Origin: a virus
Taxonomy: Duplodnaviria > Caudoviricetes
Direction: 5' to 3' (one strand)
IMG/VR virus record: IMGVR_UViG_3300031867_000005
Location: 32,001 to 96,000 of that record
DNA length: 64,000 nt
Of this stretch, positions 1 through 64,000 are shown in pieces. The position numbers and the translations under genes are program-made. The notes beneath the pieces are model-generated. The model was not told the DNA's origin and did not search any database. It was given only the letters and a program-made list of their open reading frames with translations. Every line of letters begins with the position of its first letter. Position 1 is the stretch's first letter.

Positions 1-3000
1 GGCAGATTTCTCAACTGCTACCCAATAGATGACAGCGGCTTAATAAACACGCAAGGTCGCTTTAAAATATTTTAATTGCTGGAAAGTTCTTAGAGATGAT
101 AAAACCACAACATAAAAAGAAATTTTAAGTGTGAAGGTTTAAAAATTTATCAAATTGAATAATCAGCAGCGAAGAATCTATTCTAGATTAACGTTCAACG
201 ACTATCCCGTAATGGGAGTAGAATTTAAGTAAATTCGAAAAGGATATGAAAAAGATATAGTCTAAACTTTAAGGAAACTTAAAGCAGTTCATAAGAGAAC
301 GCATTGGAATTAACGACTTCAATGGAATGTAAATGTTGCGTGGTTTCCATATGGAAATGGATGAAGGCGCACGAGTAACCGACGTATATTCTGAATTAGC
401 AGCCCATGCGGCAGCGGATGTAAATGGTATCGCTTATGCGATGAGTAAAGCGGCATCAATTGGTGCTTAAAATGTTCAAATTGCTGGAACACCTTAAAGA
501 TTATTATGCTAAAAGTTTTTTAAAACTAATGCGGCGAAAGCAGAAACAAATAATAATATGGCATATGGAATGATTAACCTAAGTGCTTTATAATAGGCAA
601 TCAGCAGCTAAATGGAGGAGAAAAAAATGAGATTTGAAGAAAAAATAAAATATGTGTTTGATAGTAATGATATTACAATAATAGAATTAAAAGGCGAAAA
701 GGAAAAGATTAAGTATTTTTGTAATTGCTGTAATAAAGAGTATGAGTATAAATGTGCAAGAAATCTTTTTTCAAAAATAAGTCTTTGTAAGGATTGCTAT
801 AATCCTTTTTCTCGTTGGAATAAAGAGAGCATTCAAGATAGGCTAAATAAATTATTTCCAGAATCTTAGATTGAAGTAATTGAATTTTTAGGTCTAAGAA
901 AAGGTGGAAAAGTTAAATGTTTAAAATGTGGAACAATTGAAGACGTGAAGAATTTTGATGCTCTCTTTTGTGCTAGAAAAGATTATTTTTGTAATAATTG
1001 TGAGAAAGAATTGAATAAGATTTATAAACATATGGAAGAGGAATTAAACTTAGGATACTTAACTTTGTTGTCGTGGAATGGGGTTAATAATAAGAGTAAG
1101 TTTAAATGTAATAGATGCGGTCATGTGTTTGAGAAGATTGTTAATAGGAAGTTTAGTGGGAAGATTTGCCCTAATTGTTCAAAGGTTTGTAATAAGTTTT
1201 CTTTTGAAGAAGGACAAGAACTTTTGAATAGAAAAGGGAATAATGAGTATACTCTATTATAGTATGCTGGCACAAATAAGAGAAGTTTAATTAGACATAA
1301 ATGTGGATTTATTTATTCGACAAGACTTCTTAATTTTGAAAACACTAAAGGTTGTCCTAAGTGTTATAAAAAGATTTCTAAAGAAATATTATCTAATCAA
1401 TAATATTGCTTTTAATTTCTCCAAAATAAGTTCAACGACTATCCGAAAGGAGTAGCTTCAAGTGAAGCGAAGGAACATTGAAAAAAATATAGTCTATTCT
1501 TTAAGGAAACTTAAAGCAGTTCATAAGAGAACGCATTGGAATTAACGACTCCAATGGAATATGAAAAAACAATTGCAAATAACGCTGGTATGAGCTTCGA
1601 AACGACAGCAGCGTTTATAACTAATATGATAGAGACGACATAGGAGGCACCCAGAGACCAATCGGGAGTCAGACTCACAGTATGCCTCAAAAACTTAACT
1701 TTTGTTTCATTTTGTGATATACTAATAGTAGAAAAATGAAAAAGAGGAGTGATAGTTATGGCATATGGATATGTCTATTACAGTAAGAATGAAATAAATG
1801 GAAAAATGTATATCGGAAAGGTGACGGCGCAAACTCTTTCTTCTAGGCCCAATTATCGTGGTAGCGGTATAGATTTGAAAGAGGCATTGGAGGAATATGG
1901 AAGTAAAAACTTCTCAATACATTTCCTCGCTGAAGCAAATAGTAGCGAAGAATTAACTCAATTAGAAAAATATTATTTAATTTACTATAAAATCCCAAAT
2001 GAAAATTTTTATAACATTAATCTTGCTACTTCTAATAGTGAGCAATCAAATTACTTTAATAAGAATAATAAGAAAGGAACTAATTTAAGAGATATTATTT
2101 GTTATAATATAAAAACAAAAGAAACTTATGTATTTAATAATTTAATACAATTTTGTAGAGAACATGGCTTTAGTCGTGGATGTATTTTTAATGTAATGTC
2201 TGGACAAAGAGTTACCCATAAAGACTGTGTTTTTTGGTATTCTGATTATCCCATATCCTCTGACGCATTAAATTGGATTATTAATTACAAATTAAAAACC
2301 ACTTATAAAACGAAATACATAAAGATTGCAGAAGTTAAAGAAGAATTAAGTAATTGCTACAAAAAAGCCCAAAATAAGCTTGAAAAATTCGAGTTCCACG
2401 GATATTATATAGAAGATAATAAAGAGATAAAAATTGACTGGAAAGAACTTGAAAAATTTCAAAGTTTAATTTATAGAGATGGAGAATCTCCAAAGCCAGA
2501 AAAAGTTATTGATACAGTAGAACTCAATACAGAAGATGATAAAAAATTTGAGGATATAACCCGTCCTCATGAATATGTATTGGTTAGTAAGGACCACACT
2601 TTATATTTTTCCTATAATGAAATCAATAATTTAACAAAGATATACACAGACCTGTCAGCTCGTCTAGTTAGACAGGCAATTAATAGAAAACAGAAAACTG
2701 TAATGAACAGAAAATATCAACTGATTATTCTCGATTGAGGGCACATAATAAGTAATTATTATGTGAACTGCATTGAATTGACGGGAAACACCTTAGAGCT
2801 TTTGCTACTAAATAATATTAGTAATAATATTACGGTAAAAGATAACGCTTTTAGTATAGTAAAAAAGCAAAAGATTGGTCAACCCGCAGCCGAGTCCCAT
2901 TACTACTAATGGAAACAGGTTCAACGACTATCGGAAATTTTGCCCCGTTAGGCTTCAAGTGAAGCCGAAGTAATGCACCTCTTTTTGAAGAGGAAGATAT

Positions 3001-6000
3001 AGTCTGAGCATATAGGGAAAGTCTATAGCAGCCTTTTAATTAAGGCGAGGTAGATTAACGACCTACCTGAACATTACTGGAAAACATCAACACTGGTGTC
3101 CTTATGGTATAATACATAAACCATAATGGAAAAATTCTCTCTGATTGACTTGGACATCCAGAAGTGGATTACAGGGCGGAAGCTCATCGAATTTATTCGA
3201 GTAAGCACCGTGAACGACTGAGTGAGAGAACCCCATTTCGATGGGGATGCGACAGTCTCATCTTTGGTATAACTTAAAAAAAGAAGCCAAAGGCACTATA
3301 TGTGCGGCTATTTAAGATTTTCTTTAAATGGCTAAGGTATTGCGGTACGGCTTTAAAGACTATTAACTAATAGTAGTCTAAAAATCTTCTTAATTGCTGG
3401 AAAATCCTTAGAGTCTATTAGACCTAAACAATTACGAAAGTGTTGACAATTTAATTTTGAATTGTGGTAAAATATTTATAGAATTGGATAATCAGCAGCT
3501 AATCTGCTAAGGAGGAGTTTTAATTAAAAATGAGTGAAAGAAAAATTATAATTTTAGATGGAATTGAGTTTGATTATTATATATATTCCGATGGGAAATG
3601 CTAGAATAAGATTACAAATAATTTTTTAAAAGGGTCTATTAACAATGGTTTCTTAAATTATTATCTAAGAAAAGGAAAAATCCAAAAGAACATAGCAGCA
3701 CACAGACTAGTGGCTTTAATGTTCTTGGAAAACCCAAATAATCTTCCAACTGTTCAACATATTGATGGGAATAAGTTGAATAATAATGTTGATAATCTGC
3801 GTTGGGTAACTTACTCTGAAAGTTCGAAGAAAGCAGATCACTCTCACGTTAAGAACAGTCGCCCAGGTTATAAGTATTATACAGAATTAGAGAAAATTGA
3901 AGGGGAAGTGTGGGAACAATACAGAGATACTCATTTATATTTTTCTAATCTAGGAAGACTGAGGAATAGTAAGACTAATAGATTGTTAGTATAGCATACA
4001 TCAAAAGAGGGATACAATTATTATTCCCCAAAGCTTGATGGAAAGACAAAGAAAATTCTTACTCACCGTGGAGTTTATGAAAGTTTTTATAAGATTGAAC
4101 TGAAAAAAGAAGATTAGATTGATCATATAGATGGGAATAAGAAGAATAATAATTTAGAAAATTTAAGACTATGCACAGCATAGGAAAATTGTTTTATATA
4201 GATCTGAAAGATTAAAGAAAACTCCCTAAGCGGCAAGTTCAACGACTATTGGTGATGAATGTAGCCAAGTAAAACCTTTAGGTTTAAAAAAGGAGACATC
4301 TATAGTATAGATGAAGATATAGTCTAATCCCTTGCAAATATCTCGAAAGAGAGGGTAGAAATGTATAGCTAGATTTACAGAGCTAAAAGAAAACGTAGAT
4401 GCGTCTGAATCAGAATTTGATGATTTAGATTACAATAAGGTAGATAAAGCCTTAAAAAGTGTGGGCATTTCAATTAAAGATGCCCAAGGACAATTTAGAG
4501 ATTTGGACGACGTATTTCTTGAGTTGAGTTCTAAATGGGATTCTTTATCGAGAAATACACAAAGATATATTGCAACTATTGCGGCTTAAATTACGGGTCG
4601 CATTAAACCCTTTGAATTGCGGGGACTTAACTTAATTCTAGAATACTAAGCGTTCATCAACGTGGCAATGGGTAATTCCAAAGGTAAAGTAAAAAGTTTT
4701 AGAATGTTATAATCCGCAGCTAAGAATTAATTATCAGAATGGTAATTGATTAAAGTTCAACGACTATCGAAAACATAGTATAAGAGAAAGACTTATATGA
4801 AGAAGTGAGTAGAGTAGGATTTAAAAAAAATCCGAAGTGGAGGGCAATTATTTATTGGTTACAGAGAAATAATTGAAGATATAGTCTATATTTAATAAAT
4901 ATGGGTAGTAGACAACAATCACGTTTTATTGCGATTTCTTTAGAAGTCTAATTACATAGTAATATGTAATTAAAGCTCTTTGAATTGCTGGAAAATCCTA
5001 AAGCTAATTATACTAAAACAGAAGGATGAGATAAGCCTAAATGGAAAAGTTACGAAAGTAGAAAAAAATAATTAGATAATATATGGTGTAAACCTAAGTA
5101 TTACTAAAAATGGATAATCAGCAGCCAAGCTTTGATGAGGAGAAGGTTCAACGATCATTCGTAAGAAGTAGGGTTCAAGTGAATTCGAAGTGGAGAGCAT
5201 CCTATTGAGTATAAGTAGGATGAAGATATGATCTATACTTTATTGAAAGATAAAGAACAATTTATAGTTGTTTTTCTAGATTAACAAACTAGGAATAATA
5301 TATTAGGATGGAAGACTACGACAGAACAATGGAACTCGTAGAAACAGCACAAGATTCTGCTGGAAAGAGTTCTGAACAGTTTGCAAAATATCAAGACACA
5401 TTAGAGTATAAATTAAATCAATTAAAAAATACATGGGAGCAAATTAGAACAACCTTTATTAATAGCAATTTCTTTAAAGATGTTGTTGATATGGCAAATG
5501 ATGCTTTAGGTAAAATAGCAGATATTGATTTACAAAAAGCTTTACCTCTTGTTGTAATGATAACGCCATTAATAAAAAGGTCTATTGAAATTATTTCAAA
5601 AGGTTTTATGGATAGTGCAAATACTTTAGGAAAAGTTGGAAGTGTAATAGGAAAGACCTTAGGAGAGAAGTTAAATAAAACATTAAAGGATACAACGCAA
5701 AAACTTAATAACTTAGAGGTAAAGCTTAGTCTTAACCAAGCAGCTAAGAAAAAACTAGAAAAACAGATTGATGAAGTTAAAAGTAAACTGAAAGAGTTAT
5801 AGTTAGAAAAAAGAATATAGAATAATAGAAAATCAAATATAGAACAAGAACTTGATAAAATAAAAGAAAAAGAAGAAGAACTTACCACTTCTATGAAAGA
5901 AAATGCGGGAAAAAGAGATCAAATTCAAAAAAGAATGGCATAGCTTAGTGAGTCAGAAAATGGAAAAATAACTGAAGAATATAAGAATTTAGAAAAAGAA

Positions 6001-9000
6001 TTAGAAGAATTAACCGCAGAGTATGGGAATTTAGATAGAGAAAGATATAAAGCATAGAACACAAAAGATGAGGAAGCTCGTCTTTTAACAGACGTAGAAG
6101 ATTCCTTAACAACGTTAGATGAAAGAACGGAACAATATGAAGGACATTTAAGTGAACTAGAAGGAAGTCTTGGAGATGTAAATGAGAGACTTGAAGAATA
6201 GTAGGATGCAGCGGATGAATTGAATGAAAATGAAGAGCTTCTTAATGAAAGTGCTAAAAATGCATCCGATGCCTTGACTTTAGCAGGAACTACTATTGCT
6301 GGAGTCACTACAGCTTTACTTACGGGAGCAAATGCAACTGATACTTTTAAAACCGGCATGTTATCACTCGGCATTGCATTAGCTGGAATGGTTACTAAAA
6401 TAGTCAATTTCGGAATTGAAGCAGCGGTGGCTGCCGCAGTAAGTGGGGAAAGTATTGGAGTAGCTCTTGGAGAAGGACTAAAAAATGGCTTTATTGCAAC
6501 GAAAGTCGGCATTATTATTGTGGCTGCTGCAGCTGCACTTGTCGCTTTAATTACAGGAATTAAGGCTTATATGGAATTTTATGATAGATAGCATAAAACA
6601 ATAGAATAGCAACTAAAGGATGCGGAAGAGTCCTTAGAGGAACTTGAAAAGGTGGAAGCTGAAAAAAGTAATAAAGCGAGAGACGAGGCAGAAACTTATA
6701 AAAGTACCAAAAGTTTAATGGAAGAATATGATGAATTAAGTAAGAAATTAGTAAAAACGACCGAAGAACAAGAAAGATGGAATGAATTAATAGGAGAAAT
6801 AAATGAACAGTTCCCAGAAATTATAACTTCTTATGACGAAGCTAATGGCAAAATTACTTTACAAAGAGATTTATGGTAGGAAATTAACGATTTACAAAAG
6901 GAGTCTGCTTAGCAAGCTCAAATGGAGGCTAGTGTAGCTGGTTCGGCAACAGTTGGGGAAAAGAGAAGGATTGCTAATTTAGAGTTATCTTCTGAATTAG
7001 ATAAACGACATCAGACTTAGAAATCTATTAATGCACTAAAAAATATACAAAATAGTGATTATTTTGTTCTTTCTCCTGAAATGATAAAAAACACTTTTTC
7101 CAATTCTTCTCTTGCAAAAGAATATCAATAGGCTTACAAAGTTGATTTCTCTAAATTAGATGATGCCGGATGGTAGCAATTTTATAAGAATATACAAGAT
7201 TAGAATTCAGAAGGGTGGAAGACGTTATAGAAGTATCTTGATAATATAGAAGAAAAAGCAACGGATGCTTATAATCAATAGACAGCATACTATGATACTC
7301 TTGAAAAATAGAATATCTCTTCTTATTTATAGTCTGGAGGAACAGATTCTAATGTTGCCAATTTTGTGGCATCTGGAGCATATAATAAAAGAGGTTCCAA
7401 TAGTAATAAATATAATATTACGACTCAAAGTTTGGATGCTAAATCTGGATTTTTTAATAACGTCCATAATGATTACGTAGAATGGAAGCAGTTAACAGAT
7501 GATTAGAGAGAAATCCTTACAGCTATGAAAAAAACAGAAGAAGAGTGGAATAAAGAAAGGATAGATTTAGTAGATGATGCTAATTTTAATGCACAATACA
7601 GAGAAGCTGTAAAGATTTACGACGCTAATAAAAGAGCAGAGGAAATAATAAAAGCACTAAATGACTCTTAGGAAGCTTTTATTCAAGATTATATGACAAA
7701 TTACTCCTCAATGACAGAACAAGAAATGACTGTTGCTGAAGAAACCATTAAAGGATATATAGAAGGACTTGACAATGACTTAAGGGAAACTGGTCTTAGT
7801 TCATTAGCTGAATGGAAAGCAGATTTTGACTAGCAGAAAAGAGATATAGCTACACAAGTATCTAATATCTTAGATAAAGACTGGACAGATTTTTAGAATT
7901 GGACCATTGATTAGCTTTCTGCTTACAATACCCTACTTCAAGATGCGTTTAATGAATTCGGTTAGGGCGGTGGAAAAGAATACGTACAAGGACTAAATAG
8001 TCTTTTTGACGGGCTTGATCCAAGTAAAATAAACTAGGCATTAAATGAAATCAATTGGGATACTGCAAATGCTATAAACTGGGAAGAATTTAGAAAAACT
8101 TCAATTGAAAAATTGAAAGAACTAGGCATTCCAGGTGCAGAAGCCTTTTTTGATGAATGGGCTGAATATGAACAAAAATTTGGACATTTAAGTATAAGTT
8201 TAATAGATGAAGATAAAGTTGAGGAATATCTTGAAGGAATAAAAGAAAAAGTAGACGCAATAAACGGAAGTCGTGGGGATATTGCAGAGCTTGCCGCAAA
8301 AGTTAATTAGGGCATAGCATTAGATTATGATGAATATGCAAAATATGCTAAAGCTATTGAAGAAATGGGATTAACTGTTGAAGATTATCTTAATATTGAT
8401 GCAGATGGAAATATTTTAGCGAACGCAGAAAAAGTTTAGACTTTGTGGCAAGATGCTTATCAATAGTAGATCACAGATATTGAAACATAGATAAGTAATC
8501 TTGACGAAGAATATAGGATATAGTTAAATCAAATAAACGCAACACATGAGAGAAATCTTGAAGAAATAGAACTTTTAGAAATAATGAGTGAACAGACAAA
8601 AGAGCAGAAAAGATAGGAAGCAAGTTAGCATAGAATGATAGCGAATAACCTTAGAGCAGAAAAGAGATACACTTTTGCACATGTTCATGATTCAGAAGCA
8701 AAAAGAATAGAATAGGAGATAAATGGGTCAGTAGAAAGTGAAAAGAAAAGACAAGAATTAATAGATGCAGAAAATCAACGATGGGAAAATCAAAAGCAAG
8801 GCTTGATGACAGGTCGAGAATCAGCAAGACTGACTTTAGCCAAAGAACTAGATCGTTATAGAAAAACATACAATGCAGCATTTAAAGCATACCAAGAAGA
8901 TAACAAAAATTCTAATGACAAAATATTAGAAGATTAGAAAAAACTATTAGAAAACGTCGAAAAAGCTAACGAAGACTATGCAAAAACAGTTGAAGATAAT

Positions 9001-11124: not shown

Positions 11125-11131
11125 AAAAAAT

Positions 11132-11159
11132 AAGAGTCCCTTATTATAGGGACTCTTTT
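11132..11159 (+). terminator. Rho-independent terminator after tape measure gene
   Basis: AAGAGTCCCT-TATTAT-AGGGACTCTT hairpin followed by a T tract. Confidence 0.75.
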
Positions 11160-11176
11160 CTTAAGAGGTGAATAAA

Positions 11177-13669: not shown

Positions 13670-13683
13670 GAGGTGAGATAAAA

Positions 13684-19515: not shown

Positions 19516-19518
19516 TTA

Positions 19519-19878
19519 ATGAAAATATTAAGACAACAAATTCAATCACTCTTCTCTACTTTAAAAACTTTTGAATAGAATGAAGATTTTTCAATTTCTA
19601 CAAAATACAAGATATTAAAAATGAAGAAAATATTAGAAACAGAATTAAAATGCAATTTAGATTTATTAAACGAACTAGTAAAAAAATATGGAATGACTTC
19701 AGAAGATGGGGAAATTCTTATAAAGAAAGAATTTATGGATAATGTATCTAAGCAAATTAATGATTTTAACAATGAAGAAATAGAACTTCCAAATTTATAT
19801 TTTACAATTGATGAATTATCAGTTGCAAAAATAAATTGGAAAGACCTCGAGATACTACTGCCATTAATTAAAGATTGA
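19519..19878 (+). CDS. Small phage protein following the tail genes (119 aa)
   Basis: GGAGG RBS; extends ORF 19621 upstream through one TAG. Confidence 0.7.
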
Positions 19879-20674: not shown

Positions 20675-20709
20675 GCGTGAAATATAATATTTTTGGAGGT
20701 TATATAAAA

Positions 20710-46105: not shown

Positions 46106-46131
46106 TCTTTAATTCCCCCTTTACTATTAAT

Positions 46132-46160
46132 AGTATATCATAATTTTTATAATAAGTCAA
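46132..46160 (-). promoter_or_regulatory. SigA-type promoter of gyrA
   Basis: TTGACT-N17-TATACT with TG extension. Confidence 0.7.
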
Positions 46161-48353: not shown

Positions 48354-48385
48354 TCTATCTTCCTCCTTTTCATTATTGTATAAAT

Positions 48386-48414
48386 ATTATATCATAATAA
48401 AATAAAAAAGTCAA
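48386..48414 (-). promoter_or_regulatory. SigA-type promoter of gyrB
   Basis: TTGACT-N17-TATAAT with TG extension. Confidence 0.75.
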
Positions 48415-48419
48415 GATAC

Positions 48420-49343: not shown

Positions 49344-49610
49344 ATAAAATTATTCCTCCTTATTAGATTTTTCTTTTTCTACTCCTTGTCCTTTATTAAA
49401 ATTTTCTGGAGATACTACAACAGCATCCCTAAATCTACTATAGGTATAGCATTTTTCAGTTACGTCAACATTTTCAATTTCCTGAACAGTCCAATCACAG
49501 TCAATGAACTGTGCGCCCTTACCATCTTCTACTTGTTTAATTGCTTTACCATTTCAGGCGTTAGAATAAAATCCATTACATATTTCATTTAAATCCTCTC
49601 CTTTCTTAAT

Positions 49611-50195
49611 TTATATTTTGAAAAAAATTGCATAATTTTCTAAATCAGGAATGATATACTTTTCACCATTAAAATACTCAAAGGAAACATTAATCAATTT
49701 ATATCCATCATTATAAGGAATTACATGATAGCATTGTTGATTATAACTTCCTCTTAAGTCAATTCCTTTAATTTTTTTGTCTTTTTCATATCTACCATCT
49801 ATTAAATAGTTAATTTTTGTTATAATTTCTTTTCTTTTTCTATTTAACTCATTAGAAACTAGAATTTCATCAACTGTCATTCCTGTATAGAGAATGATTT
49901 CTTTTTTTGAGCCAAATTTCTTTCTTATTTCAGAACAGATTAAATTAACAGTATCAAGATTTTTATAGTATAAAGGGTCTCCACCACTAAGAACAAAATT
50001 CTTTACATATGGTTTATCTAGAGATTCTAGAATTTCTTCCATTACTTTAAAAGTAAATTCTTTTCCGTAATTGAAATCCCATGTTTGGGGATTATGACAT
50101 TCTTCACAGTGATTGGCACAACCACTTACAAAGAGGGTTGTGCTAATACCATGAGAGTTACCAGTATCGAATTTTATTATTTCACTATAGTTCAC
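49611..50195 (-). CDS. nrdG: Anaerobic ribonucleotide reductase activating enzyme
   Basis: LFVSGCANHCEECHNPQTWDF, LSGGDP, LRGSYNQ. Confidence 0.92.
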   Translation of the reverse strand: MNYSEIIKFDTGNSHGISTTLFVSGCANHCEECHNPQTWDFNYGKEFTFKVMEEILESLDKPYVKNFVLSGGDPLYYKNLDTVNLICSEIRKKFGSKKEIILYTGMTVDEILVSNELNRKRKEIITKINYLIDGRYEKDKKIKGIDLRGSYNQQCYHVIPYNDGYKLINVSFEYFNGEKYIIPDLENYAIFFKI

Positions 50196-53900: not shown

Positions 53901-53978
53901 AATAATTGCATTTCTAATCTTATTACGGTCATACTTCTGTATCAACCCATCTTCTTTGATTACTTCCAAAACAATCAA
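50918..53978 (-). CDS. nrdD: Anaerobic ribonucleoside-triphosphate reductase, spliced (exons 53978-52341 and 51415-50918), two TAG codons
   Basis: ATP cone; YFHD; NCCL; [13 protein letters not shown]...LQFGG (both Q encoded by TAG); MGCRS; junction YGTP-METL; RICGYI glycyl-radical loop. Confidence 0.92.
51416..52340 (-). mobile_element. Group I intron in nrdD carrying an HNH ORF
   Basis: P1 UCCU/GGGG and P10 AUG/CAU; core TGTCTAACGACTA...AAGATATAGTCT; terminal G. Confidence 0.88.
51602..52174 (-). CDS. Intron-encoded HNH/NUMOD homing endonuclease (~190 aa; likely ATT start)
   Basis: [49 protein letters not shown] followed by in-frame ATT; open with TAG=Gln. Confidence 0.8.
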
Positions 53979-53997
53979 CTCCTTTTCTTTTTTTTAA

Positions 53998-54026
53998 ATT
54001 ATAACATAAGATAAAGAAAAAGTCAA
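53998..54026 (-). promoter_or_regulatory. SigA-type promoter of nrdD
   Basis: TTGACT-N17-TATAAT with TG extension. Confidence 0.75.
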
Positions 54027-54042
54027 GAAAATAATCTTGACT

Positions 54043-54432
54043 TTAAATAATTTCTTCCCAAACTTTTATTTCACTCATAATTGTCTTTATATAAGAATTC
54101 CCATTCAGAATTTCATACTAATTATACAATGATAATGCATTTTCCTTTACATAATGAGGAATCCTTTTTGAGTCTTTATATTTAAAATAAATTTGAGTAA
54201 TTTCATTACGTAATATTGCTAAATCTGTCTTATCTGAAATATCAATTCTCTACTCAATTTTTTCTAAAGATTGTCTAATCTCTTCATTAGCACCAGTTGA
54301 TTCTTCACGGATAACTTTCCTAAACCACTCCTTAGGCTTTTTGGTAATAATAGCTAGAAATGTTCCTAGTGTAATTAAAGAACCAGCTATTCCACCAATT
54401 GTTCCTAAGGCCGCAATTATTGTTGCCCACAT
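54043..54432 (-). CDS. Holin-like membrane protein (129 aa)
   Basis: N-terminal transmembrane helix, coiled coil, then AILRNEI...YNQYENLNGNSYI; open through TAG codons. Confidence 0.55.
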
Positions 54433-54440
54433 TTTAATTT

Positions 54441-54839
54441 TCACCTCTTCAACATATCGTTGTGATAAATTGATTTGACTCTATATTTAGAATTAGTTAA
54501 AATTTCGTTTAAAGTAATATTGTCAATTTCCCAGTAAGGGATTCTAATTAAAGGGATGCTATGTGCCAAACAGTAACTGTTCTTCTTCCTATCTCTTTCC
54601 TACTATTTAAGAAAATCAGAATACTTCTTATGAAAATACGGAGTATATTTGAAATGTTGCTACCCATCAACTTCCAAACAAAACAAAATTTTTCCATTAA
54701 CGAAAACTCCAAAGTCATAACGTAAATGGGATTTCTTTTTTCCTTTTAAATCCTAAAAATTTATTTCTCTTACATATGAAATTCCGTTTTTTCTAAAAAG
54801 TTCTTCAATTTTCTTTTCCCCTTTTGAGCTCTTAATCAC
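54441..54839 (-). CDS. Stand-alone Vsr/DUF559-like PD-(D/E)XK nuclease (132 aa)
   Basis: SKGEKKI...LRYDF...LEVDGQQHF...RDRKKNSYC...IPLIRIPYW. Confidence 0.75.
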
Positions 54840-55662
54840 AGTCTTCTCGCCGCCTAGGTGGTTTCTCATTAGAGGGCTTAGGAATAAAAACAGGATACGG
54901 CATCGGCATAAAAGCAACTTGCCCATTTTCAGGATGGTATTTAGGAACTTTATAAGGTTCTATATGGAATGTTGCAAGATGGTATAGGCTTCCGTCTCTG
55001 CAAGGAACTCCATGGGGATACTTTTTAATGATTTTCTTAATTCCTTCCTCCTAATTTAATCCTTTAATTCCTTCATAGAAATCACAATTTAAGTTAGCAG
55101 AAAAGTGGGTTGTATTAATTACATCATATTTTTCGTTTTCTTGCTCCTTTTCAATCATTTCTTCGCGCCAGCCTTCAAGCCCTACAATAATTTGACTTTT
55201 TGATTCATCAGAAAGTTCATAGGTGCCGCCATAGTAAATTTCTCTACCTTTTTCAATTTTAAATTCCTTATCAAACTTATCATAGAATATATTAAACATT
55301 ACATAGTATTTTTCATCAATCATGTAAATAACTTGAACTATATCATAATTTCTCCATTTAGCATCAAGATAAGTTCCAGTCTCATCCTCAGTGATAGTCG
55401 TAATGGTAACTGGGAAATAGTCCTCAGGCTTGTGGAAGTTATAACCCCTATAGTCACACAAATGTTTACCATGAAGTTCGCTTAATTCTCTATCTTCCTA
55501 AGGGTCGCCCAATACTCGTTGGATTAGTGCTGCAGTTTTGAGATAGTCTTCTTTAATTGAACAAACATCAAATTTCTTGCAAGTAAAGCAACGTATTGGT
55601 TTTATCTATGTATGTGGTGGCGGTTCATGAATGTTAATGGGAGTTAAAAAGTGTTCTTTCAT
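54832..55662 (-). CDS. Hypothetical protein with CxxC motif (276 aa)
   Basis: GAGGTG RBS; extends ORF 55051-55461 at both ends through TAG. Confidence 0.65.
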
Positions 55663-55868
55663 TTTATCACCTCTTTTCTTTATTGCGGCCGCAACAACCG
55701 TTCTATTATTAAAGGTGGAATTTAAGGGGAAAATTTCTAAGATTTTAGAAGAGGTTTAGTTGCTAAAGATTTAAATTGGAGCGACGAAGTCGCCAGCCTG
55801 CTTCTGCGCTGCTGCAGAAGCCTTTCTTTGATTACTTTCTTTTGGGAAAAGAAAGTAATACTATATGA

Positions 55869-55974
55869 TAGGAAAAATTTCACGAATCGGTAGGAAAAAT
55901 TTCACGAATCGGTAGGAAAAATTTCCTGGAACGATAGGGAAAATTCCACGAACGATAGGAAAAATTTTCGCACC
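55869..55974 (+). repeat. Five tandem 21-22 bp iteron-like repeats; putative replication origin
   Basis: TAGGAAAAATTTCACGAATCGG twice exactly, plus three variants at 55913, 55935 and 55956; partial inverted copy near 55993-56005. Confidence 0.8.
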
Positions 55975-56052
55975 ATTTTTTTTGAAGTTTTTTTCGTGGA
56001 ATTTTACTTATATAATGGCGAAAGCCAGAAAAAATAAAAAGGAGGAATTTTC

Positions 56053-56904
56053 ATGACAAGAACAAATCCAAAATAGGCCGCACCAATGCCTAAAAAAGAA
56101 TCGTCAATTACAGATAATCCAATGAGGTTATATACTTATTTAGTCTGTATTTCAGGATTAGCTGACTACCCAGATAATACAAGAATGTTCAGACAGAAAG
56201 ATTTAACTTTAACTAGAATACAAGAAACAACTGGAATAACTCCAAAAACAGCAAAACTCTATCTTTATTGTCTTGAATAGAATGGGTTAATTAAATATCG
56301 TGGTGATACATCTTTTAATTTTGTCGATGAAACAGTTTTTGAGAAGAAAACTGAATTAAGAAAAGCGAAACAAGATGAAGCAAGTAGAATCTGGAAATAT
56401 AGAAATAAATATGAGAAGACTGGTGTTTATCATATACCTCGACCCATCCCCTATACGCCTGTCCCAGAAATTACATTAGAAAGATTAAATAATGAGTTTA
56501 ACATAAATGAATTGGAATTAAAAATATATTTATTATGTTGTTCTTATAGAGATACTTGTGTTAATGAAAATAGAAGTTTTAAGGTATTAACTTTTGAAAA
56601 AATTAGAGATACTATAAAAATGACCCTGGATGCAAAAAATAACGCAGCAATTAGAGGAGCACTTGCTTTTCTTTATGGAGTTGGACTGATTGATTATACT
56701 GAAGGTGCTATAGATAATAGAAAAGGTGGTAAGATACCATGTTTTAAATTAAAGGAAGTTTACTACTATATTTCAGATAAAAATAGAAATGTTGATTTTA
56801 CTGGATAGGAAGAAGAGAAAGATAGCGTTTTTAAGGAAATTTAGGAACGTATAGAAAATGGTTTTTATAAAATTGAGAATCTAGAAAATAACATTAAAAT
56901 CTAA
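56053..56904 (+). CDS. Putative replication initiator / tandem winged-helix protein (283 aa)
   Basis: GGAGG RBS. ORFs 56086 and 56512 join through TAG. Two wHTH-like units (RLYTYL...LEQNGLIKY; LKIYLL...LYGVGLIDY); adjacent to the repeat array. Confidence 0.65.
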
Positions 56905-56940
56905 CCAGATAGTAACTATTAACATTTTTCTAACAAACAA

Positions 56941-56964
56941 AAAGGAGAGACAGTCGCCTCTCCT
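56941..56964. terminator. Terminator hairpin between convergent genes
   Basis: AAGGAGAG-ACAGTCGC-CTCTCCTT; T-rich tail on the - strand. Confidence 0.6.
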
Positions 56965-56971
56965 TCCCTTA

Positions 56972-57035
56972 TCATTCAATTTGACTAAAATCACAATCTT
57001 CTGCCTTTTTATCCTCTCTCCAATTCACAATCTTT
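56972..57035 (-). pseudogene. Orphaned remnant of a DNA ligase C-terminus
   Basis: Translates KIVNWREDKKAEDCDFSQIE*, aligning with the ligase end KFIQERPEKNYIDCDFSQISGE*. Confidence 0.75.
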
Positions 57036-57897
57036 AGATTGAATTTATTAAATTCTATAAGTATTCTTCATTAATTTTCTTGTAATCAGTATAAGGAATT
57101 TCAAAGAGAATATATTTTTTTTCTTTACAGTATTTTCTTTTTATTTCATCATTTTTTAATTGTCTTTCAAATCTTTCTTTACCGCCTGGAAAACCTGTTG
57201 ACTCATAATGCTATTGACCCTAATATTCAATAAAAATTTGAAAATCAGGAAGATAAAAATCAAAAAATAAAGGGAAATTACGGTAACTGTGTAAATCATT
57301 TGGAGAATATTGCTCTTGATAATTTATCGCCATTTCTTTTAAACAATGGCATATCAACTGTTCTCCTTTTGATTTTTTGATGCATCCGCAAGAAAAAGTC
57401 TTGTTTTTTATTAAATTACTATAACTAATAATCTATCTCTTTCCACAGCTACACTCACAAAGCCAATAAGAGTTCCTCTAATCTTTTTTCTTATCACTTT
57501 TCTGTATAACTCTCCAATGACCATATATATTACCTGATAAATCTCCTGTCCTATAAAAATGATTTAAAGATATGTTATATTTCTTCGCAATATTATCAAT
57601 TATATAATTACAATTAGTTGAATTTTTCTAATATCCAAAATTCTCTAAAGCTTCTTTATAACTAGTGGAATTCTATAAAATAGAGATAATTTCATCATCT
57701 GAAAAATTCTACCATTTCTATTTAGAACCTTTTATCAACTTAGATATATCTATATTATATTTATTAGCTATTTCTTCTAATATAGAAGTTTTCACTGTTT
57801 CGGCATATCCTAATTTTAGGATTACTTCTTTATAAGTTTTACTTGTATTTATTATTGAAATAATTTCTTCTCTAGAAAAGCGTTCATATTTTTTCAT
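57034..57897 (-). CDS. Free-standing putative homing endonuclease (zinc ribbon plus Vsr/DUF559-like domain, 287 aa)
   Basis: Two N-terminal helical repeats, WLCECSCG, SCGCIKKSKGE, FDFYLP, IEYQGQQHY; absent from the ORF track because of TAG codons. Confidence 0.8.
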
Positions 57898-57956
57898 TCA
57901 ATCACTCCTTTTTATGTTAATAGTTATTTTACTATTTATAAGTAATTGTAATAATA

Positions 57957-59093
57957 TTATTCTCCAGAAATTTGGGAAAAGTCGCAATCTATATAATTTT
58001 TTTCTGGTCGTTCTTGTATGAATTTTGCATGGCGCAAAGAATAATTCTCATCAATTTTTTCTATTTCCATGCAAGTAATTTCATAAACTTTATTAATGTA
58101 TTTTTCTGGATGACGGACTATTCCCTCTCGCATTTCATCGGGGATTCCTGAAATATATCCAATATGAAAAGGCTTTCCATTTTTCATAACTGAAATTGAT
58201 ACTGCTGCAGCACGCTCATAAAAATAGTTTTTAGTTACTGGTTCCCATGGCATACCCATACTGTATTCAAAATACATATTTTTATTTTCTTTTTCACCCG
58301 TTTTAATATTTTCGTAATATTGCCAATTTTTAATTTCCTTACCATTATAAAGTCTAGTTGGAAGTTTGTAGCCGCCATCAAGAAAGGCATCAATTGTTTG
58401 TTCGATTTCCATTTTAACTTTAAGAGTTTTTCTAGCAGTTCTCTTCCCCGGTTCTGGCTTACTGTCATTACGAGTTATGACGATACCCTCGCCACCAGAA
58501 CTTAAAGTTTCTCCGAGTAAATTCCAGAGTTCTTCACCCTTAAGATACTTAGCAAACTCAACATAAGGATTGGTTCTTTCTTCTTTAAATCGCTTTTCTA
58601 ATTCTCCAATAAACTCAAAGCGTTTTTCCGCAGTCGTATTAAGAAAAGATTTTCCATTATAAGACCATACATCAAAGATATAATAACTTAATTTTTCTCC
58701 TTTTTCTTGTCTAATAATAGCCTTATCCATAAGACACCCCAGAATTGTTGTCACTTTTCTAGAACCTCTTTGATTCGGAAAGTAAAGTTCTCCCAAAAGA
58801 CAAGTCCCATTAGGAAGCCAATCAAAGAGAGATTTAAGTTGCGGCACCCATTCGTGTTTATCAAGATACTCTCCATTTACAGACTTACTTCTTCCTTGCA
58901 TTCTGATATTACCATCTTCGTCTTTGATAAGACGACAGTAATGTCCATCTTGTTTAAGACTCCCAGAAAAAATACCAGATAAGATGAAGTTTTTAGTCTC
59001 TGCTTTTGCGTCTCCTTTGTAAGTTTTGGGGAAAGACCAATACTTTTCAGCAGGAAGTTCTGTAAATGAAATTCCATCAATATATCCTCTCAT
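57957..59093 (-). CDS. ATP-dependent DNA ligase
   Basis: LKQDG (motif I), LLGELY, YIFDV, GEGIVI, LKVK, SLRHAKF. Confidence 0.85.
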   Translation of the reverse strand: MRGYIDGISFTELPAEKYWSFPKTYKGDAKAETKNFILSGIFSGSLKQDGHYCRLIKDEDGNIRMQGRSKSVNGEYLDKHEWVPQLKSLFDWLPNGTCLLGELYFPNQRGSRKVTTILGCLMDKAIIRQEKGEKLSYYIFDVWSYNGKSFLNTTAEKRFEFIGELEKRFKEERTNPYVEFAKYLKGEELWNLLGETLSSGGEGIVITRNDSKPEPGKRTARKTLKVKMEIEQTIDAFLDGGYKLPTRLYNGKEIKNWQYYENIKTGEKENKNMYFEYSMGMPWEPVTKNYFYERAAAVSISVMKNGKPFHIGYISGIPDEMREGIVRHPEKYINKVYEITCMEIEKIDENYSLRHAKFIQERPEKNYIDCDFSQISGE

Positions 59094-60007
59094 AATAATT
59101 CCTCCTTAATAATATCTTTATCTGTTATTTGTCCTTTAATTATAATTAAAGGAATATTGTTCTTTTTACAATATTCTTTTTTTAAATTATCTCGCCATTG
59201 CCTGTCTTTAAAATCTTCTTCTCCTCCATAATATTTTATGGGATAGAAATGCTATTCTCCTTGATACTCTATTAAATAGCATAATTTATCATCTTTAAAA
59301 ATGGCAAAATCAAATCTTAGAGGGTGTTTCTTCCCTCTTAAATCAGAAAAAGAATATTCTTTAATATAACTTATATCATTTTGTATTAAAATTTTTTCTA
59401 TTTCTTTTTCATATGAAGACTTTAAACACCCACAACTTTTAACGTTGCCATTTCGTATCAGACTGCCATTTTTAACACAATCTTTTCCACATAATAGACA
59501 CTTACAATTCCAATATGCGTGTTTTTTCTCAGCAGTTACTTTTTCATTTAAAGACAATATTTTTAAATAATTATAAGTTTCACCAGACATATCAATTAAA
59601 TGAGTATCTCTAATTCTCTCTTTATTATAGCATCCGCAAGATTGAGTTTTCTTTGAAATTAATTGTCCTGCTGCTACAATTGTCTTATTTCCACATTTAC
59701 ACTGACAATTCCAAAATAAATCTCCATGAGAATGTTTTCTAGTTTCTTCTTCATTAATTGAAATTGCAGTTAAATAGCCAAAGGTTTGATTAGAAAGATC
59801 TTGTCCTCTTACTTTTCGCATTGTTTCTTTCTATAAACATCCACAAGACTATGTTGCACCACTTTTTAAATGGTCTATTCTTATTTCTTTTTGATTACCA
59901 CATTCACATTCACATAAATAATAAGTTTGATTATTTTTTCTTATTCTATGACTTATAACATGTAATCTACCAAAATAAGAATCATAATAATCCACTCATT
60001 TTCCCAT
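59090..60007 (-). CDS. Free-standing putative homing endonuclease (three CxCxCG/SCGC repeats plus Vsr-like domain); in-frame TGA at codon 4
   Basis: GAGGTG RBS, then ATG GGA AAA TGA GTG; rest of frame open with TAG=Gln; LRFDFAI, IEYQGEQHF. Confidence 0.7.
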
Positions 60008-60066
60008 TTTATCACCTCTATTTATAAGTAAAATACCAAGTTTCTCTTATAAGGTTTTGGGATTTT

Positions 60067-60095
60067 ATTATAACATAAATTAAAAGAAAAGTCAA
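60067..60095 (-). promoter_or_regulatory. SigA-type promoter
   Basis: TTGACT-N17-TATAAT with TG extension; -35 overlaps the RNase H stop codon. Confidence 0.75.
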
Positions 60096-60589
60096 GCATC
60101 TGCTTGACTCATTTTTACTTTCATTTCAACTGCCAGCGCATCAACATATTGATTAAATTCATCTGTTGAATGACCTTTTACTTTAATAAAAATAACCTTT
60201 ATAAATTGCTCTTCAAGTTCCTTTATAAGGTCATAAGTATCTCTGATGATAAAGAGGTTCTCAATTGGCTCATGCTTCTTTCCGCTAGTCCAACCATTTT
60301 TCTTCCAGTTCTTTGTCCATTGAGTATAAATATTTATTGAATAAGCGGAATCAGAATAAATTTTAATTATGTCGCCTGGAAGAGATGCTCTCTCTGCATC
60401 AATTAATGCTTCCATAATAACAGTAAGCTCCTGTTCATTATTTGTTGTTTTCTTAGCACCGCCGCTAGAATGTGTTGCAATTTCTCCGTTTTGAATTCGA
60501 GCATACACCCAGCCGCCAGGACCTTTAGAATATACACCATTATTATTTGTCAATGTGTAAGCACCATCAGTATAATACTTAATTACCAT
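60092..60589 (-). CDS. rnhA: Ribonuclease HI
   Basis: YTDGA, GPGGW, TTNNEQEL, YSDSAY, KVKGH, NQYVDALA. Confidence 0.9.
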   Translation of the reverse strand: MVIKYYTDGAYTLTNNNGVYSKGPGGWVYARIQNGEIATHSSGGAKKTTNNEQELTVIMEALIDAERASLPGDIIKIYSDSAYSINIYTQWTKNWKKNGWTSGKKHEPIENLFIIRDTYDLIKELEEQFIKVIFIKVKGHSTDEFNQYVDALAVEMKVKMSQADA

Positions 60590-61094
60590 TACTAATCTCC
60601 TTATTATAAAAATCAATTGCCAATTCCTTTAATTCATTAAGCGTTCCATCATTGTCAATTATAATATCATAGTCAACACTCATTACATTATCATCTGCGG
60701 CGTTACCATATTTTTTAAGGTCTCCTCTCTTTACAAGTATTACTTTGGCCGCAAAGTCATTCTTCAACCTAATTATATCTTCTTTCTCTCTAGCATCTAC
60801 AAAGACAGCATTAACGCCATCATTTTTAAAGCTCATAATGTCCTCATAAGTATAAGAGTAAGAGTAATTACAATATCCATCACATAATTGCTTCAGATTA
60901 TAAAGAAAAACTCTATCTCTATTTTCTTTGCTAATTCCATCCCATCCTACGCTTTTTGCTAATTCTTTAACTCCATTAATCATAGATGTCTTTCTTACTT
61001 TCATCCTATCCATTTTCCAAGCAATTTCAGAAACAAAATCTTCAAATTTACTCTTTCCTACAGCTCCCTGTCCATTAACAATAAAAACTTTCAT
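60579..61094 (-). CDS. P-loop nucleotide (dNMP) kinase-like protein
   Basis: NGQGAVGKS, VFVDARE, YDIIIDNDGTL. Confidence 0.7.
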   Translation of the reverse strand: MKVFIVNGQGAVGKSKFEDFVSEIAWKMDRMKVRKTSMINGVKELAKSVGWDGISKENRDRVFLYNLKQLCDGYCNYSYSYTYEDIMSFKNDGVNAVFVDAREKEDIIRLKNDFAAKVILVKRGDLKKYGNAADDNVMSVDYDIIIDNDGTLNELKELAIDFYNKEISNGN

Positions 61095-61994
61095 TCAAAT
61101 CTCTCCTAAAATCTCATATTTTCTTTTATCATACTCCCAATTCCCAAAAAAGTCAATATGAAAACCATATTGTTGTCTTAAATTAGAAGGTATTATATAA
61201 TTATTTATATTATCTTCTTGTGGTAAGTTAGCCCAATTCTGTAGACTAAAAAGAAAATTAATATCATCTAAAAGCTAAGGCTTTTCCTTTTCATAATAAT
61301 AGAAAACTAATCCTTTATAGTCTTCAATCTATCTAAGTAACTCTTGGTCTTCTTCAATTTTTCCAGTCAATTTAATTAATGCTAAATTATTAATATGTAA
61401 TAAAAAATAATTATCGCCCCATTCATTATTTTTTCCATTTAAAAACTTCACAAAGGAGACAATTTTTTCATCATTAAACTAAATTTTGTCTTTTTTTAAA
61501 TATCCAATATGATAAAAAATCTATGAAGTTTGAATCTACTCAGGGGTAAAATCTATAAGAGGTTTCCAAGTAGGACATAGGAAATTCTTAAATTTTTTCT
61601 TATCATCTATTACATTATATAGAGGATTAACTGGCTATACAATTATACACTATTTTTTTCTTTGAAGAGAATTAGTCTTTAAAATACTAATTCTTTTATC
61701 TTTACCTAAATATTTTTTAGTATTAAGAGTTTTTCCTAATATATAAATTTGAAAATTGAACTAACAAATTGCCTAAATATTTTTTAATATTTTATAACAA
61801 ATTAAACTCAACAGGTCATCCTTATAATCAATAATAAAAATACGTTCGGAACAGTTTTGAAATTGAAATTCAAAATTATTCATTTTTCTGTTAATTAACC
61901 AATTTGTTTGTTCTTCAATAGACCAATTTTTATTGGGATAATATTTTAAATTTAAATCGTATAGAACCAATTTTCGTTTTGCTTCAACGAGCAT
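61095..61994 (-). CDS. Hypothetical protein (299 aa, TAG-rich)
   Basis: GAGGTG RBS; frame open through TAG codons to TGA 61095-61097, abutting the next ATG. Confidence 0.6.
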
Positions 61995-62190: not shown

Positions 62191-62213
62191 ATTAATATAA
62201 GGAGATGATTAAA

Positions 62214-62462
62214 ATGACCTTAACTTATAAATTGTATAGGGATGTTGTAGGTAGGACGGCAGCATGTCTTAATTAGGAGTTAAGAAAAATGAATATTTCT
62301 ATTAGAATTATAAATAAAAATAGAATGATAAACGGAAATAGTCTTGTTGGTATTTTATAGTCACATATGAGATTTGGTGATGTTATAAAAGTAATTTTTG
62401 AGGAAGAGAAGCAATCCGAAAGAATAAGAGAATTATTCAATGAAATAGGGAGGGAAATATAA
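62214..62462 (+). CDS. HPr-like protein lacking the His15 equivalent (82 aa)
   Basis: VVGRTAACL...RMINGNSLVGILQSHMRFGDVIKV matches the HPr pattern; AGGAG RBS; two TAG codons. Confidence 0.6.
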
Positions 62463-62749
62463 TGGCTTATAGATGTGTTACTGTTTCAGCAGAACCGAAC
62501 GAAGAAATTTTAAAAAAAATTTATAAGATTTTAAACCAAGAAGATGGTTATTTTAATACAAGATTTCAATTGCGTTTTATTGGTTTTGAAGCTGAAAGAG
62601 GAACTGAATTTAAGATTAACAAAGTTAAAAATAAAGTTCCATCTACTGGATATTTTATTACGCCTTATGATGGAGCGGGGTATATGGTAATAAATTCATT
62701 AACTTTTGATGATGGATGTAGTAATTAGTCTTTTTATATTATATATTAA
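62462..62749 (+). CDS. Hypothetical protein (95 aa)
   Basis: TAATG coupling; extended through TAG 62726. Confidence 0.65.
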
Positions 62750-62760
62750 GGAGTGATAAA

Positions 62761-64000
62761 ATGGGACAATTTAATCCTTTTATAAAAAGTAATTATAATG
62801 ATTTAAAAGTTGTCATAGATTCAGCTTTGTCTTCAACTTCAGAGAATCCGGTATAGAATAAGACTTTGAATGCAATTATTAATGGAAATGGAAATGATAG
62901 TATTCATTATAAGATTATATCAGAAATTGCTAATGTTGTTGCAAATGCTCCAGAAGATTTAAATACGCTGAAAGAAATTGCAGACTGGATTGATACTCAT
63001 GAAGATGATGCAGCCGCTATGAATACAGCGATTCAAGAAAATAAAAGAGCTTTATAGAATTTAGTTGGTAAAAACGTTACTGGAACCGAGTATACGATAA
63101 ATGGTTCAACTGTTTCTGCAGGAACAGGAGCTGAAATATTTAATGATTATTCTGATAATATGTCAGCAGGAGACTATTCTCATGCTGAAGGAAATGGAAC
63201 CGAAGCAATAGGTAATTATTCTCACGCTGAAGGACAAAATTCTTGTGCTGAAGGAGAAGGTTCTCATGCTGAAGGATTAGATACCCACGCAAATGGTATA
63301 GCCTCGCATACAGAAGGATATCAATCATATTCAACGGGAGACTATTCTCATGTTGAAGGATACGGTACATATACAGATACAGATTATTCTCACGTTCAGG
63401 GGAAATATAATGCATATAATACAGAAAGAAAATATGCTTTCATCATTGGGAACGGAACTAGTAATAACAACCGTTCTAATGCATTTGCCGTTGATTGGGA
63501 TGGATTGATTTATGTAAATAATTCATCTACGGGGATAAACCTAAAATCTTTATTCGATGAAATGACTAATAAAGTAGATAAAATAACTGGGAAATAGTTA
63601 TCTACAGAAGACTACACAACAGCAGAAAAAACAAAACTTGCTGGTATTGAACAATTAGCAACAGCAGTTGGTAAAAATGTCACAGGGACTAAATATACAA
63701 TAAATGGTTCAACTGTCACCGCTGGTGATGGTGCTGAAATATTTAATAATTATACCGCCAATAAAGCATCAGGCTTGGATTCTCATGCCGAGGGACTTAG
63801 TACAACTGCATCAGGAGAGTGTTCTCATGCCGAAGGAGCTGGTACAACCGCATCAGGACGTTATTCTCATGCCGAGGGACAAAATACAACCGCATCAGGT
63901 GATTATTCTCATGCCGAAGGAGCTGGTACAACCGCATCAGGCTTGGATTCTCATGCCGAGGGACTTAGGACAACCGCATCAGGCTTGGATTCTCATGCCG
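62761..64000 (+). CDS. Tail fibre / adhesin with YadA-head-like SHAEG repeats, 3'-partial
   Basis: DSALSSTSENPVQNK (Q encoded by TAG), APEDLNTLKEIADWI, KVDKITGKQLSTEDYTTAEKTKLAGI, 14-aa ASGxxSHAEG repeats. Confidence 0.8.
63767..64000 (+). repeat. 42-bp coding tandem repeat
   Basis: Units of GCATCAGG-N6-TTCTCATGCCGA(A/G)GGA-N6-ACAAC(C/T); some near-identical. Confidence 0.85.

Follow-up and report, generated by a model that had tools for sequence, protein, structure and literature searches.

Gene content of the window

The 64,000-bp stretch of DNA analyzed here (the window) comprises bases 32001–96000 of a single 178,685-bp IMG/VR virus record, IMGVR_UViG_3300031867_000005, from a phage in which the codon TAG encodes glutamine and is abundant in tail genes but nearly absent from the core replication genes. 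The guanine-plus-cytosine content of the whole genome is 31%. CheckV rates the record as complete, and a search of the record for terminal repeats found none. The tested stretch is present in full in only one sequencing run, a bovine gut metagenome that is possibly the source sample. When the portal protein was compared with deposited phages using tblastn, phAss-1 was the top match at 30% identity, and Enterococcus EF1-like phages ranked behind it at 26% identity, together with Bacillus siphoviruses. These similarities suggest a tailed phage that is only remotely related to the phAss-1/Enterococcus EF1 group, and likewise only remotely to any other described phage. Pfam and PHROG searches back the earlier gene names across the window. 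Positions given below refer to the window unless they are marked as genome coordinates.

The tail module (5308–19878, + strand) is rich in TAG codons, with 56 in the C-terminal part of the tape measure (5308–11124), 12 in the distal tail protein gene (833 amino acids; 11168–13669), 39 in the gene for a 1943-amino-acid tail protein (13684–19515) and one in a small open reading frame (ORF; 19519–19878). In the three large tail genes, TAG accounts for 43–46% of the glutamine-type codons (CAA, CAG and TAG). Upstream, the intron-rich tape-measure region contains homing-endonuclease ORFs on the + strand (612–4207 overall) at 612–1403 (two TAGs), 1749–2738 (none) and 3530–4207 (five). Downstream lies a cassette of six genes (20028–22966, + strand) with no assigned function, which carry 6, 4, 3, 0, 3 and 3 TAGs.

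The replication block on the − strand opens with a RuvC-like Holliday junction resolvase gene (23005–23724; phrog_827, E = 6e-19), in which 11 TAGs make up 73% of the glutamine-type codons. The dUTPase (23730–24530), a ClpP-like protease (24545–25294) and DnaE, the polymerase III alpha subunit (26408–31570; 1720 codons, with 61 CAA or CAG), are TAG-free, and DnaE contains a LAGLIDADG intein at approximately codons 418–830. Next come a PAPS-reductase-like gene (31905–32864) with five TAGs, RecJ (32873–34627) with a single TAG at codon 265, a TAG-free primase (34627–35679; phrog_47), an unnamed gene (35676–36395) and a DnaB-like helicase (36373–37656; phrog_19, E = 4.5e-36). The initial annotation of this DNA, made from its sequence, credited DnaB with two TAGs; there are indeed two internal ones, at codons 294 and 336, but a third, codon 427, directly precedes the TGA. 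At this TAG-TGA end (36373–36378, − strand) the protein changes by at most one residue whether or not the TAG is decoded.

Three replication or nucleotide-metabolism genes, phoH, gyrB and nrdD, are split, in addition to the intein carried by DnaE. The PIN-PhoH gene (38465–40919, − strand) consists of two TAG-free exon parts (39987–40919 and 38465–38776) separated by an insert with a LAGLIDADG ORF (38921–39727, − strand; five TAGs) and only a weak Rfam group I match (39841–39989, 22.5 bits). It is followed by a TAG-free run (40894–50195, − strand) made up of an AAA_24/Sak4-like ATPase, three function-unassigned genes, GyrA, GyrB, a Dcm methylase and NrdG, in which GyrB (46157–48353) is split by an ORF-less group I intron (47731–48015; 64.5 bits, Rfam) with no TAG in either exon. 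NrdD (50918–53978, − strand) is divided into an N-terminal part (52323–53978), with TAG at codons 206 and 215, and a TAG-free C-terminal part (50918–51418). The nrdD insert gave no Rfam group I match and contains an HNH endonuclease ORF (51602–52063, − strand) with four TAGs and no CAA or CAG.

A mixed run of TAG-free and TAG-bearing genes (54043–61994, − strand) follows. The ATP-dependent ligase (57957–59093), RNase H and a dNMP-kinase-like gene in this run are TAG-free; the HNH homing endonucleases (54441–55013, 57034–57897 and 59090–59995) and the function-unassigned genes at 54043–54444, 54832–55662 and 61095–61994 carry TAGs, as does a winged-helix 'Rep-like' gene on the opposite strand (56053–56904; four TAGs). 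The second late block begins on the + strand (62205–64000) with an HPr-like gene (two TAGs), a function-unassigned gene (one) and a fibre gene that runs off the end of the window (three, including an ENPV-TAG-NK site). Our recount agrees with the initial annotation that RecJ has one TAG and NrdD two, and that DnaE (intein included), GyrA, both GyrB exons, primase, ligase, both PhoH exons, the Sak4-like ATPase and dUTPase have no in-frame TAG at all.

TAG is a sense codon

We measured coding density as the coverage by ORFs of at least 100 amino acids. Coverage of the window rises from 61.4% under translation table 11 to 90.6% when TAG is read through, and coverage of the whole genome rises from 57.7% to 86.3%, so that the comparison of tables 11 and 15 proposed in the initial annotation comes out in favor of recoding. 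The gain is specific to TAG, because the control in which TGA is read through adds little (64.8% for the window and 63.8% for the genome). TGA recoding, which brings no gain of this kind, can be ruled out. Near the right end of the genome (156–178.7 kb), ORF coverage is ∼0.6–0.75 under both table 11 and TAG = Gln, and TGA read-through lifts it by a similar amount; small ORFs and non-coding DNA probably make up this region.

Across the ORFs, the 552 in-frame TAGs show an even distribution that does not rise toward the C-termini, indicating that TAG rarely or never acts as a terminator. This even spread is the informative result, whereas TAA or TGA at the end of every reconstructed gene, as noted earlier, is correct but follows from the way in which the genes were constructed. 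The content of glutamine-type codons reaches an ordinary 3.5% only if TAG is counted among them. For the tape measure, with 56 TAGs, we computed that a 10% yield of full-length protein needs at least 96% read-through per codon, which argues for true reassignment rather than leaky suppression. The late genes use TAG and CAA at similar frequencies and CAG only rarely, so that TAG acts in them as one more ordinary synonymous codon and not as a rare regulatory one.

The base following TAG differs slightly from that following the other glutamine codons. In all genes with at least three TAGs, counted genome-wide, the +4 base is T after 18% of sense TAGs versus 26% after CAA or CAG (p = 0.001), and C follows 15.5% of sense TAGs versus 7% of CAA codons, after which T stands in 26.5%. 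At true TAA and TGA stops, T comes next in 43% of genes. This small effect suggests a mild avoidance of strong termination contexts.

TAG encodes glutamine

A search of viral contigs with NrdD identified many related contigs of 140–185 kb, and a query with the 833-amino-acid distal tail protein found no relatives among viral contigs. We retrieved two relatives. G003 is a 162,448-bp genome with direct terminal repeats that is rated complete and is syntenic with our phage along the whole genome at ∼60% protein identity. G001 is an 81-kb fragment of the closest relative, and is recoded as heavily as our phage.

For comparisons by site, TAG was masked as X before alignment so that the query could not bias the residue calls. 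The initial annotation placed the two NrdD TAGs on conserved glutamine columns, and both placements hold: codon 206 aligns with Gln in 113 of 113 homologues, and codon 215 with Gln in 22 of 22 distant homologues (∼39% identity) and in 42 closer homologues. In the portal, which lies outside the window, 11 TAG columns pool to 24% Gln against a background of 3.7%, compared with 18% Gln at the portal's own CAA and CAG columns; three of the TAG columns are 93%, 54% and 47% Gln. The strongest TAG user among large genes, a 398-amino-acid gene at genome 2186–3382, has Gln as the commonest residue at 13 of its 24 TAG columns, which pool to 43% Gln against a background of 5.2% and include two adjacent columns with Gln in 116 of 118 and 118 of 118 sequences. 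The TAG site in RecJ was uninformative, falling at a variable position in a PDB search, and a PDB search with DnaB gave no match.

We also scored 336 TAG sites in a genome-wide likelihood test, using per-amino-acid substitution profiles derived from tblastn alignments to four relatives. Gln ranks first and leads Glu by 135 nats. The codon that G003 most frequently aligns with our TAGs is CAA (47 sites), followed by TAG (20) and CAG (18). Gln is thus enriched at TAG columns, the opposite of the lack of enrichment that the initial annotation had named as an argument against its reading, and its claim that TAG is reassigned to glutamine is upheld by NrdD, the portal, the 398-amino-acid gene and the likelihood test. 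Two of the motifs it offered as support do not serve that purpose. The ENPV-TAG-NK motif of the fibre gene is present (at 62842), but its TAG is matched by Asp in three relatives, and the AFD-TAG site of RuvC is not independent evidence because the same site is TAG in G003 too.

TAG use differs between gene classes

We defined a core class of replication and nucleotide-metabolism genes in the window that are supported by Pfam or PHROG. TAG makes up only 6 of the 221 glutamine-type codons of this class (2.7%), as compared with 111 of 253 in the tail genes (44%; Fisher p = 7e-29), confirming that recoded codons are concentrated in structural genes and nearly absent from core replication genes. 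The share is also high in endonuclease ORFs (23 of 48 codons in the six so classed in this analysis) and in three accessory genes, namely the RuvC-like gene, the PAPS-reductase-like gene and a DUF2726-type ORF (19 of 40); the last was later identified as an HNH endonuclease. The TAG share is heterogeneous from gene to gene (χ2 = 143, 30 degrees of freedom, p = 1e-16), so that the uniform usage the initial annotation had set against its own claim is not seen. At the window-wide TAG share, the probability of finding 0 of 61 in DnaE is 1.4e-9.

The same contrast extends along the genome. Late blocks on the + strand at genome 1–55 kb and 94–113 kb have a TAG share of ∼43%; the replication block on the − strand (genome 55–94 kb), where TAG-free genes are mixed with TAG-rich insertions, has a mean of 16%; and the + strand block at genome 113–178 kb, with tRNAs, RNA ligases and small ORFs, has 10%, with 52 of its 75 genes TAG-free. 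A strand-specific mutation bias was rejected as the cause, since TAG-rich and TAG-free genes both occur on both strands. Moreover, same-strand neighbors can be of opposite type. The PAPS-reductase-like gene lies 8 nucleotides downstream of RecJ, dUTPase and the RuvC-like gene are separated by 5 nucleotides, and a TAG-bearing HNH ORF overlaps the TAG-free ligase gene by 4 nucleotides. With genes of the two kinds so closely packed on the same strand, any gating of their expression must act at translation.

Homing endonucleases provide an internal control. Seven of the eight free-standing homing-endonuclease ORFs carry 2–9 TAGs, the remaining one (1749–2738) having none, so the initial statement that most endonuclease genes have many holds for seven and fails for one. 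The seven include the LAGLIDADG ORF in the phoH insert and the HNH ORF in the nrdD insert. The LAGLIDADG inteins of DnaE (0 TAG, 10 CAA or CAG) and of a UvrD-type helicase (0 TAG, 5 CAA or CAG), by contrast, are TAG-free. These inteins are obliged to be translated as part of TAG-free host proteins, and TAG avoidance therefore tracks the context of translation and not family, origin or function.

Comparison with G003 indicates how this pattern arose. TAG occurs 1.7 times per kb in G003 versus 2.9 times in our phage, and per-gene TAG densities are correlated between the two (Spearman 0.65, p = 2e-11). All 35 TAG-free genes of our phage with a well-aligned orthologue in G003 are TAG-free there too. 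G003 has no TAG in the portal, the shared homing endonucleases, DnaB, RecJ, NrdD or the Rep-like gene. Together with the heavy recoding of G001, this indicates that orthologous genes acquired their TAGs in situ, with the replication module affected last of all and only sporadically. In this order, the earliest genes to be recoded were the tape measure, the tail genes and those at the start of the late block, and the portal, accessory genes and homing endonucleases followed; the core replication genes have barely been reached.

Several individual genes depart from a simple structural-versus-replication division. The ClpP-family protease (24545–25294, − strand) sits in the replication block, but its best PHROG matches are head-maturation proteases; its G003 orthologue also has no TAG. 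If it is truly a prohead protease, it would be an exception to the TAG-rich structural genes. A candidate major capsid gene (genome 11154–12311, + strand), so assigned only because it follows the portal and a scaffold-like gene, has TAG at only 1 of 14 glutamine-type codons, and its G003 orthologue has none, a hint that TAG is avoided in late genes with very high expression as well.

In the late block, the 398-amino-acid gene (genome 2186–3382, + strand) comes before all other long genes. It is the most TAG-dense large gene, with TAG at 24 of 398 codons and at 80% of its glutamine-type codons. It encodes a C-terminal four-cysteine motif. A sigma-factor label for this gene comes from PHROG 5767 only; Pfam returned nothing and Foldseek no match at E ≤ 0.001, and in VIA-align the sigma-factor rows (Z 6.3–6.4) tie with many unrelated helical hairpins, which makes the label a tentative one. 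If the gene does encode a late transcription factor, late transcription would depend on TAG decoding as well.

A split tRNA is the candidate TAG reader

The initial annotation saw no CUA-anticodon tRNA, GlnRS or RF2 in the window and called for a search of the rest of the genome. That search likewise found no uninterrupted tRNA(CUA) in the whole genome with ARAGORN and Rfam, and no release factor (PF00472) or GlnRS/GluRS-type enzyme (PF00749), both of which were detected in control genomes. All tRNA genes lie outside the window, at genome 132.7–137.7 kb and 153.8 kb. When introns are allowed, ARAGORN reports a tRNA at genome 133505–133631 with a 51-nucleotide insert in the anticodon loop, and shifting the junction by one base from ARAGORN's choice yields the loop CUCUAAC with the anticodon CUA. 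This tRNA is the sole candidate TAG reader, and its anticodon is CUA only once the insert has been removed. The CUA reading is supported by both relatives: G001 has a plain 77-nucleotide tRNA(CUA) whose acceptor stem is similar, whose CCA is encoded and whose loop reads CUCUAAA, and G003 has a tRNA that ARAGORN itself calls as CUA and that also contains a 51-nucleotide insert.

The candidate suppressor tRNA is located in the TAG-poor block, and nearby are TAG-free genes for Rnl2-type and Rnl1-type RNA ligases and for a kinase-HD protein, which might rejoin a cut tRNA. In blastn searches the interrupted tRNA genes matched neither E. coli genomes nor phages, and we make no claim of isotype by similarity. 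More tRNA genes with anticodon-loop inserts of ∼45–56 nucleotides are found in our genome and in G001. They include an interrupted tRNA-Leu at genome 135293–135425 (Rfam, 38.9 bits) and, at 51257–54578 of G001, four interrupted tRNAs called by ARAGORN with introns, one of which is labelled with anticodon UUA, a label that depends on where the junction is placed.

TAG codons in DnaB, RecJ and NrdD

According to the initial annotation, replication itself would be tied to a code switch by the small number of TAGs present in DnaB, RecJ, NrdD and the Rep-like gene. In its strongest form, these TAGs would be selected control points at which replication waits for the switch. The positions of the codons lend this idea some weight, because DnaB codons 294 and 336 fall within the ATPase domain and those of NrdD on conserved Gln columns, so that both proteins would be truncated without decoding. 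The closest relative, moreover, shares the TAG at NrdD 206 and has three TAGs in NrdD. However, this site is shared with G001 alone, and the complete and syntenic G003 has no TAG in any of the four genes. At RecJ 265, DnaB 336 and NrdD 206 and 215, G003 has CAA or CAG, and at DnaB 294 it has GAA. With four of the five internal sites being CAA or CAG in G003, the TAGs are best explained by recent synonymous spread and not by a conserved link of replication to the code switch. The TAG share in these genes is 6–20%, as compared with ∼44% in late genes, and the sites differ between lineages, the pattern that neutral spread produces. A conserved design is thus not supported, and we consider selected coupling distinctly unlikely. 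From the comparison of sequences, the TAGs in DnaB, RecJ and NrdD look like a recent synonymous spill-over in a heavily recoded sub-lineage, at sites that are young and lineage-specific.

Irrespective of how these codons arose, full-length DnaB and NrdD of our phage, as predicted from their genes, do depend on TAG decoding. Either the switch precedes the bulk of replication or DnaB and NrdD matter mainly later. A bolder proposal is that in this sub-lineage the boundary between the two codes has shifted to within the replication module, such that full-length DnaB and NrdD, and with them sustained replication, would depend on removal of the tRNA insert, and the TAG share of each gene would be a graded record of when its product is needed. 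We regard this as rather unlikely. If it were true, genome replication and not only virion assembly would depend on tRNA processing.

A proposed two-code model for the phage

The explanation that we favor, with a probability of roughly 0.75, is that TAG is a glutamine codon, that the TAG-free set of genes is kept so by selection, that TAG-bearing genes yield full-length products only after a switch in code and that the split tRNA is the reader. In this model, the host is assumed to terminate at TAG, an assumption to which the conserved set of TAG-free genes lends only indirect support. Genes needed before the phage reader becomes active would stay TAG-free by selection, and all other genes would drift from CAG and CAA to TAG, until, as is now the case, ∼44% of the glutamine-type codons are TAG in tail, accessory and selfish-endonuclease genes. 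The conserved TAG-free set consists of DnaE, gyrase, primase, ligase, PhoH, the Sak4-like ATPase, dUTPase, NrdG and most of the block at genome 113–178 kb. TAG-bearing genes would be fully translated only after the switch, even on mRNA shared with TAG-free neighbors, and the tRNA at genome 133505–133631 would serve as the reader after removal of its 51-nucleotide insert. The TAGs in DnaB, RecJ and NrdD would then be recent spill-over and not a conserved control device. We infer a temporal switch that gates the late genes because the conservation of the TAG-free set in G003, the close packing of TAG-rich and TAG-free genes, and the position and interrupted state of the reader all fit such a model. 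Selection, rather than gene origin, is indicated by the retention of the TAG-free set in G003 and by the contrast between inteins and free-standing endonucleases.

Several observations weigh against this model. The genetic code of the host is an assumption; the need of DnaB and NrdD for TAG decoding is an exception to the division between late and replication genes; the endonuclease ORF at 1749–2738 and the ClpP-like protein that matches head-maturation proteases are both TAG-free; and the genome has neither an uninterrupted tRNA(CUA) nor a release factor or GlnRS/GluRS-type enzyme. The Gln found in some close database homologues may itself be a read-through TAG, a problem that does not affect the 22 distant NrdD homologues or the CAA and CAG codons read directly from G003 DNA.

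If there were no temporal switch, TAG would be read as Gln all through infection, and the TAG-free genes would reflect either selection for fast or accurate translation or recent acquisition from a standard-code source. The single TAG among 14 glutamine-type codons of the putative major capsid gene and the lack of TAG in the head-protease-like gene do hint that expression level matters too. Recent acquisition, however, is difficult to reconcile with a TAG-free set that is kept gene for gene in G003 at only 25–75% identity, and the TAG-free genes include many small, presumably low-abundance ORFs of the block at genome 113–178 kb. A reader encoded by the phage, furthermore, cannot be present at injection, and the candidate gene needs processing first. 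We therefore consider the absence of a switch very unlikely. That TAG encodes another amino acid, or that the frames interrupted by TAG belong to a standard-code phage and reflect pseudogenes or assembly errors, can be dismissed as having a negligible chance of being correct: Glu, Lys and Asn are often opposite TAG at variable sites, but Gln leads by the 135 nats of the likelihood test, TAG occupies invariant Gln columns in NrdD and the 398-amino-acid gene, the in-frame TAGs are spread evenly and are needed for an ordinary glutamine content, and two relatives show the same recoding.

Comparison with other recoded phages

Gut phages that use code 15 have been described in the crAss-like, Lak, Jade, Garnet and Amethyst clades (Borges et al., bioRxiv 10.1101/2021.08.26.457843), and code-15 phages have been validated by proteomics (Peters et al., PMC9523058). 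The gating of late genes by a code switch is a published model (Borges et al.; Peters et al.). Our phage resembles those of Borges et al. in its use of TAG for Gln, its low GC content and the coding density restored by code 15. It also shares with them the concentration of TAG in structural genes, with a replication machinery that is in standard code or, in some clades, 'variably' recoded, and the existence of less recoded close relatives that show stepwise accumulation of TAG; late-gene gating has been proposed for both.

There are also clear differences. Our phage belongs to another lineage, in which the tail module is of the siphovirus type and the portal is distantly phAss-1/EF1-like. It is without an uninterrupted suppressor tRNA, release factor or aminoacyl-tRNA synthetase, its only candidate reader being split in the anticodon; accessory code-change genes such as RF2 and GlnRS occur in some code-15 phages but are not required. 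TAG also fills its free-standing homing-endonuclease ORFs, but not its inteins. A lysis-gene bias is stressed in that earlier work; we identified no lysis genes in the window.

TAG recoding, its bias by gene class, its stepwise evolution and the gating hypothesis are thus all already published. What is added here is the intein control, the comparison with a less recoded relative, and the finding that TAG has reached DnaB and NrdD. Our phage illustrates the two-code phage model cleanly and in quantitative terms for a little-described lineage, and annotation with table 11 breaks about half of the genes in this phage family.

The closest deposited phage by portal, phAss-1, represents the proposed Phassvirus group, whose relatives include Enterococcus phage EF1 (Babkin et al. 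2023, PMC10607447). Like our phage, phAss-1 has no dedicated aminoacyl-tRNA synthetase. It differs in its 136-kb genome, its origin in the human gut and its three plain tRNA(CUA) genes (PMC10607447), and the similarity between the two phages is remote.

The relationship between our phage and G003 resembles that of the Agate pair (Borges et al., Fig. 3), in which recoded stop codons likewise arise in structural genes and the replication genes stay clean. The Agate phages recode TGA, however, and consist of a standard-code and a recoded member with >90% nucleotide identity, whereas our pair, at ∼60% protein identity, has two members that are both already TAG-recoded, but to different degrees (2.9 versus 1.7 TAG per kb).

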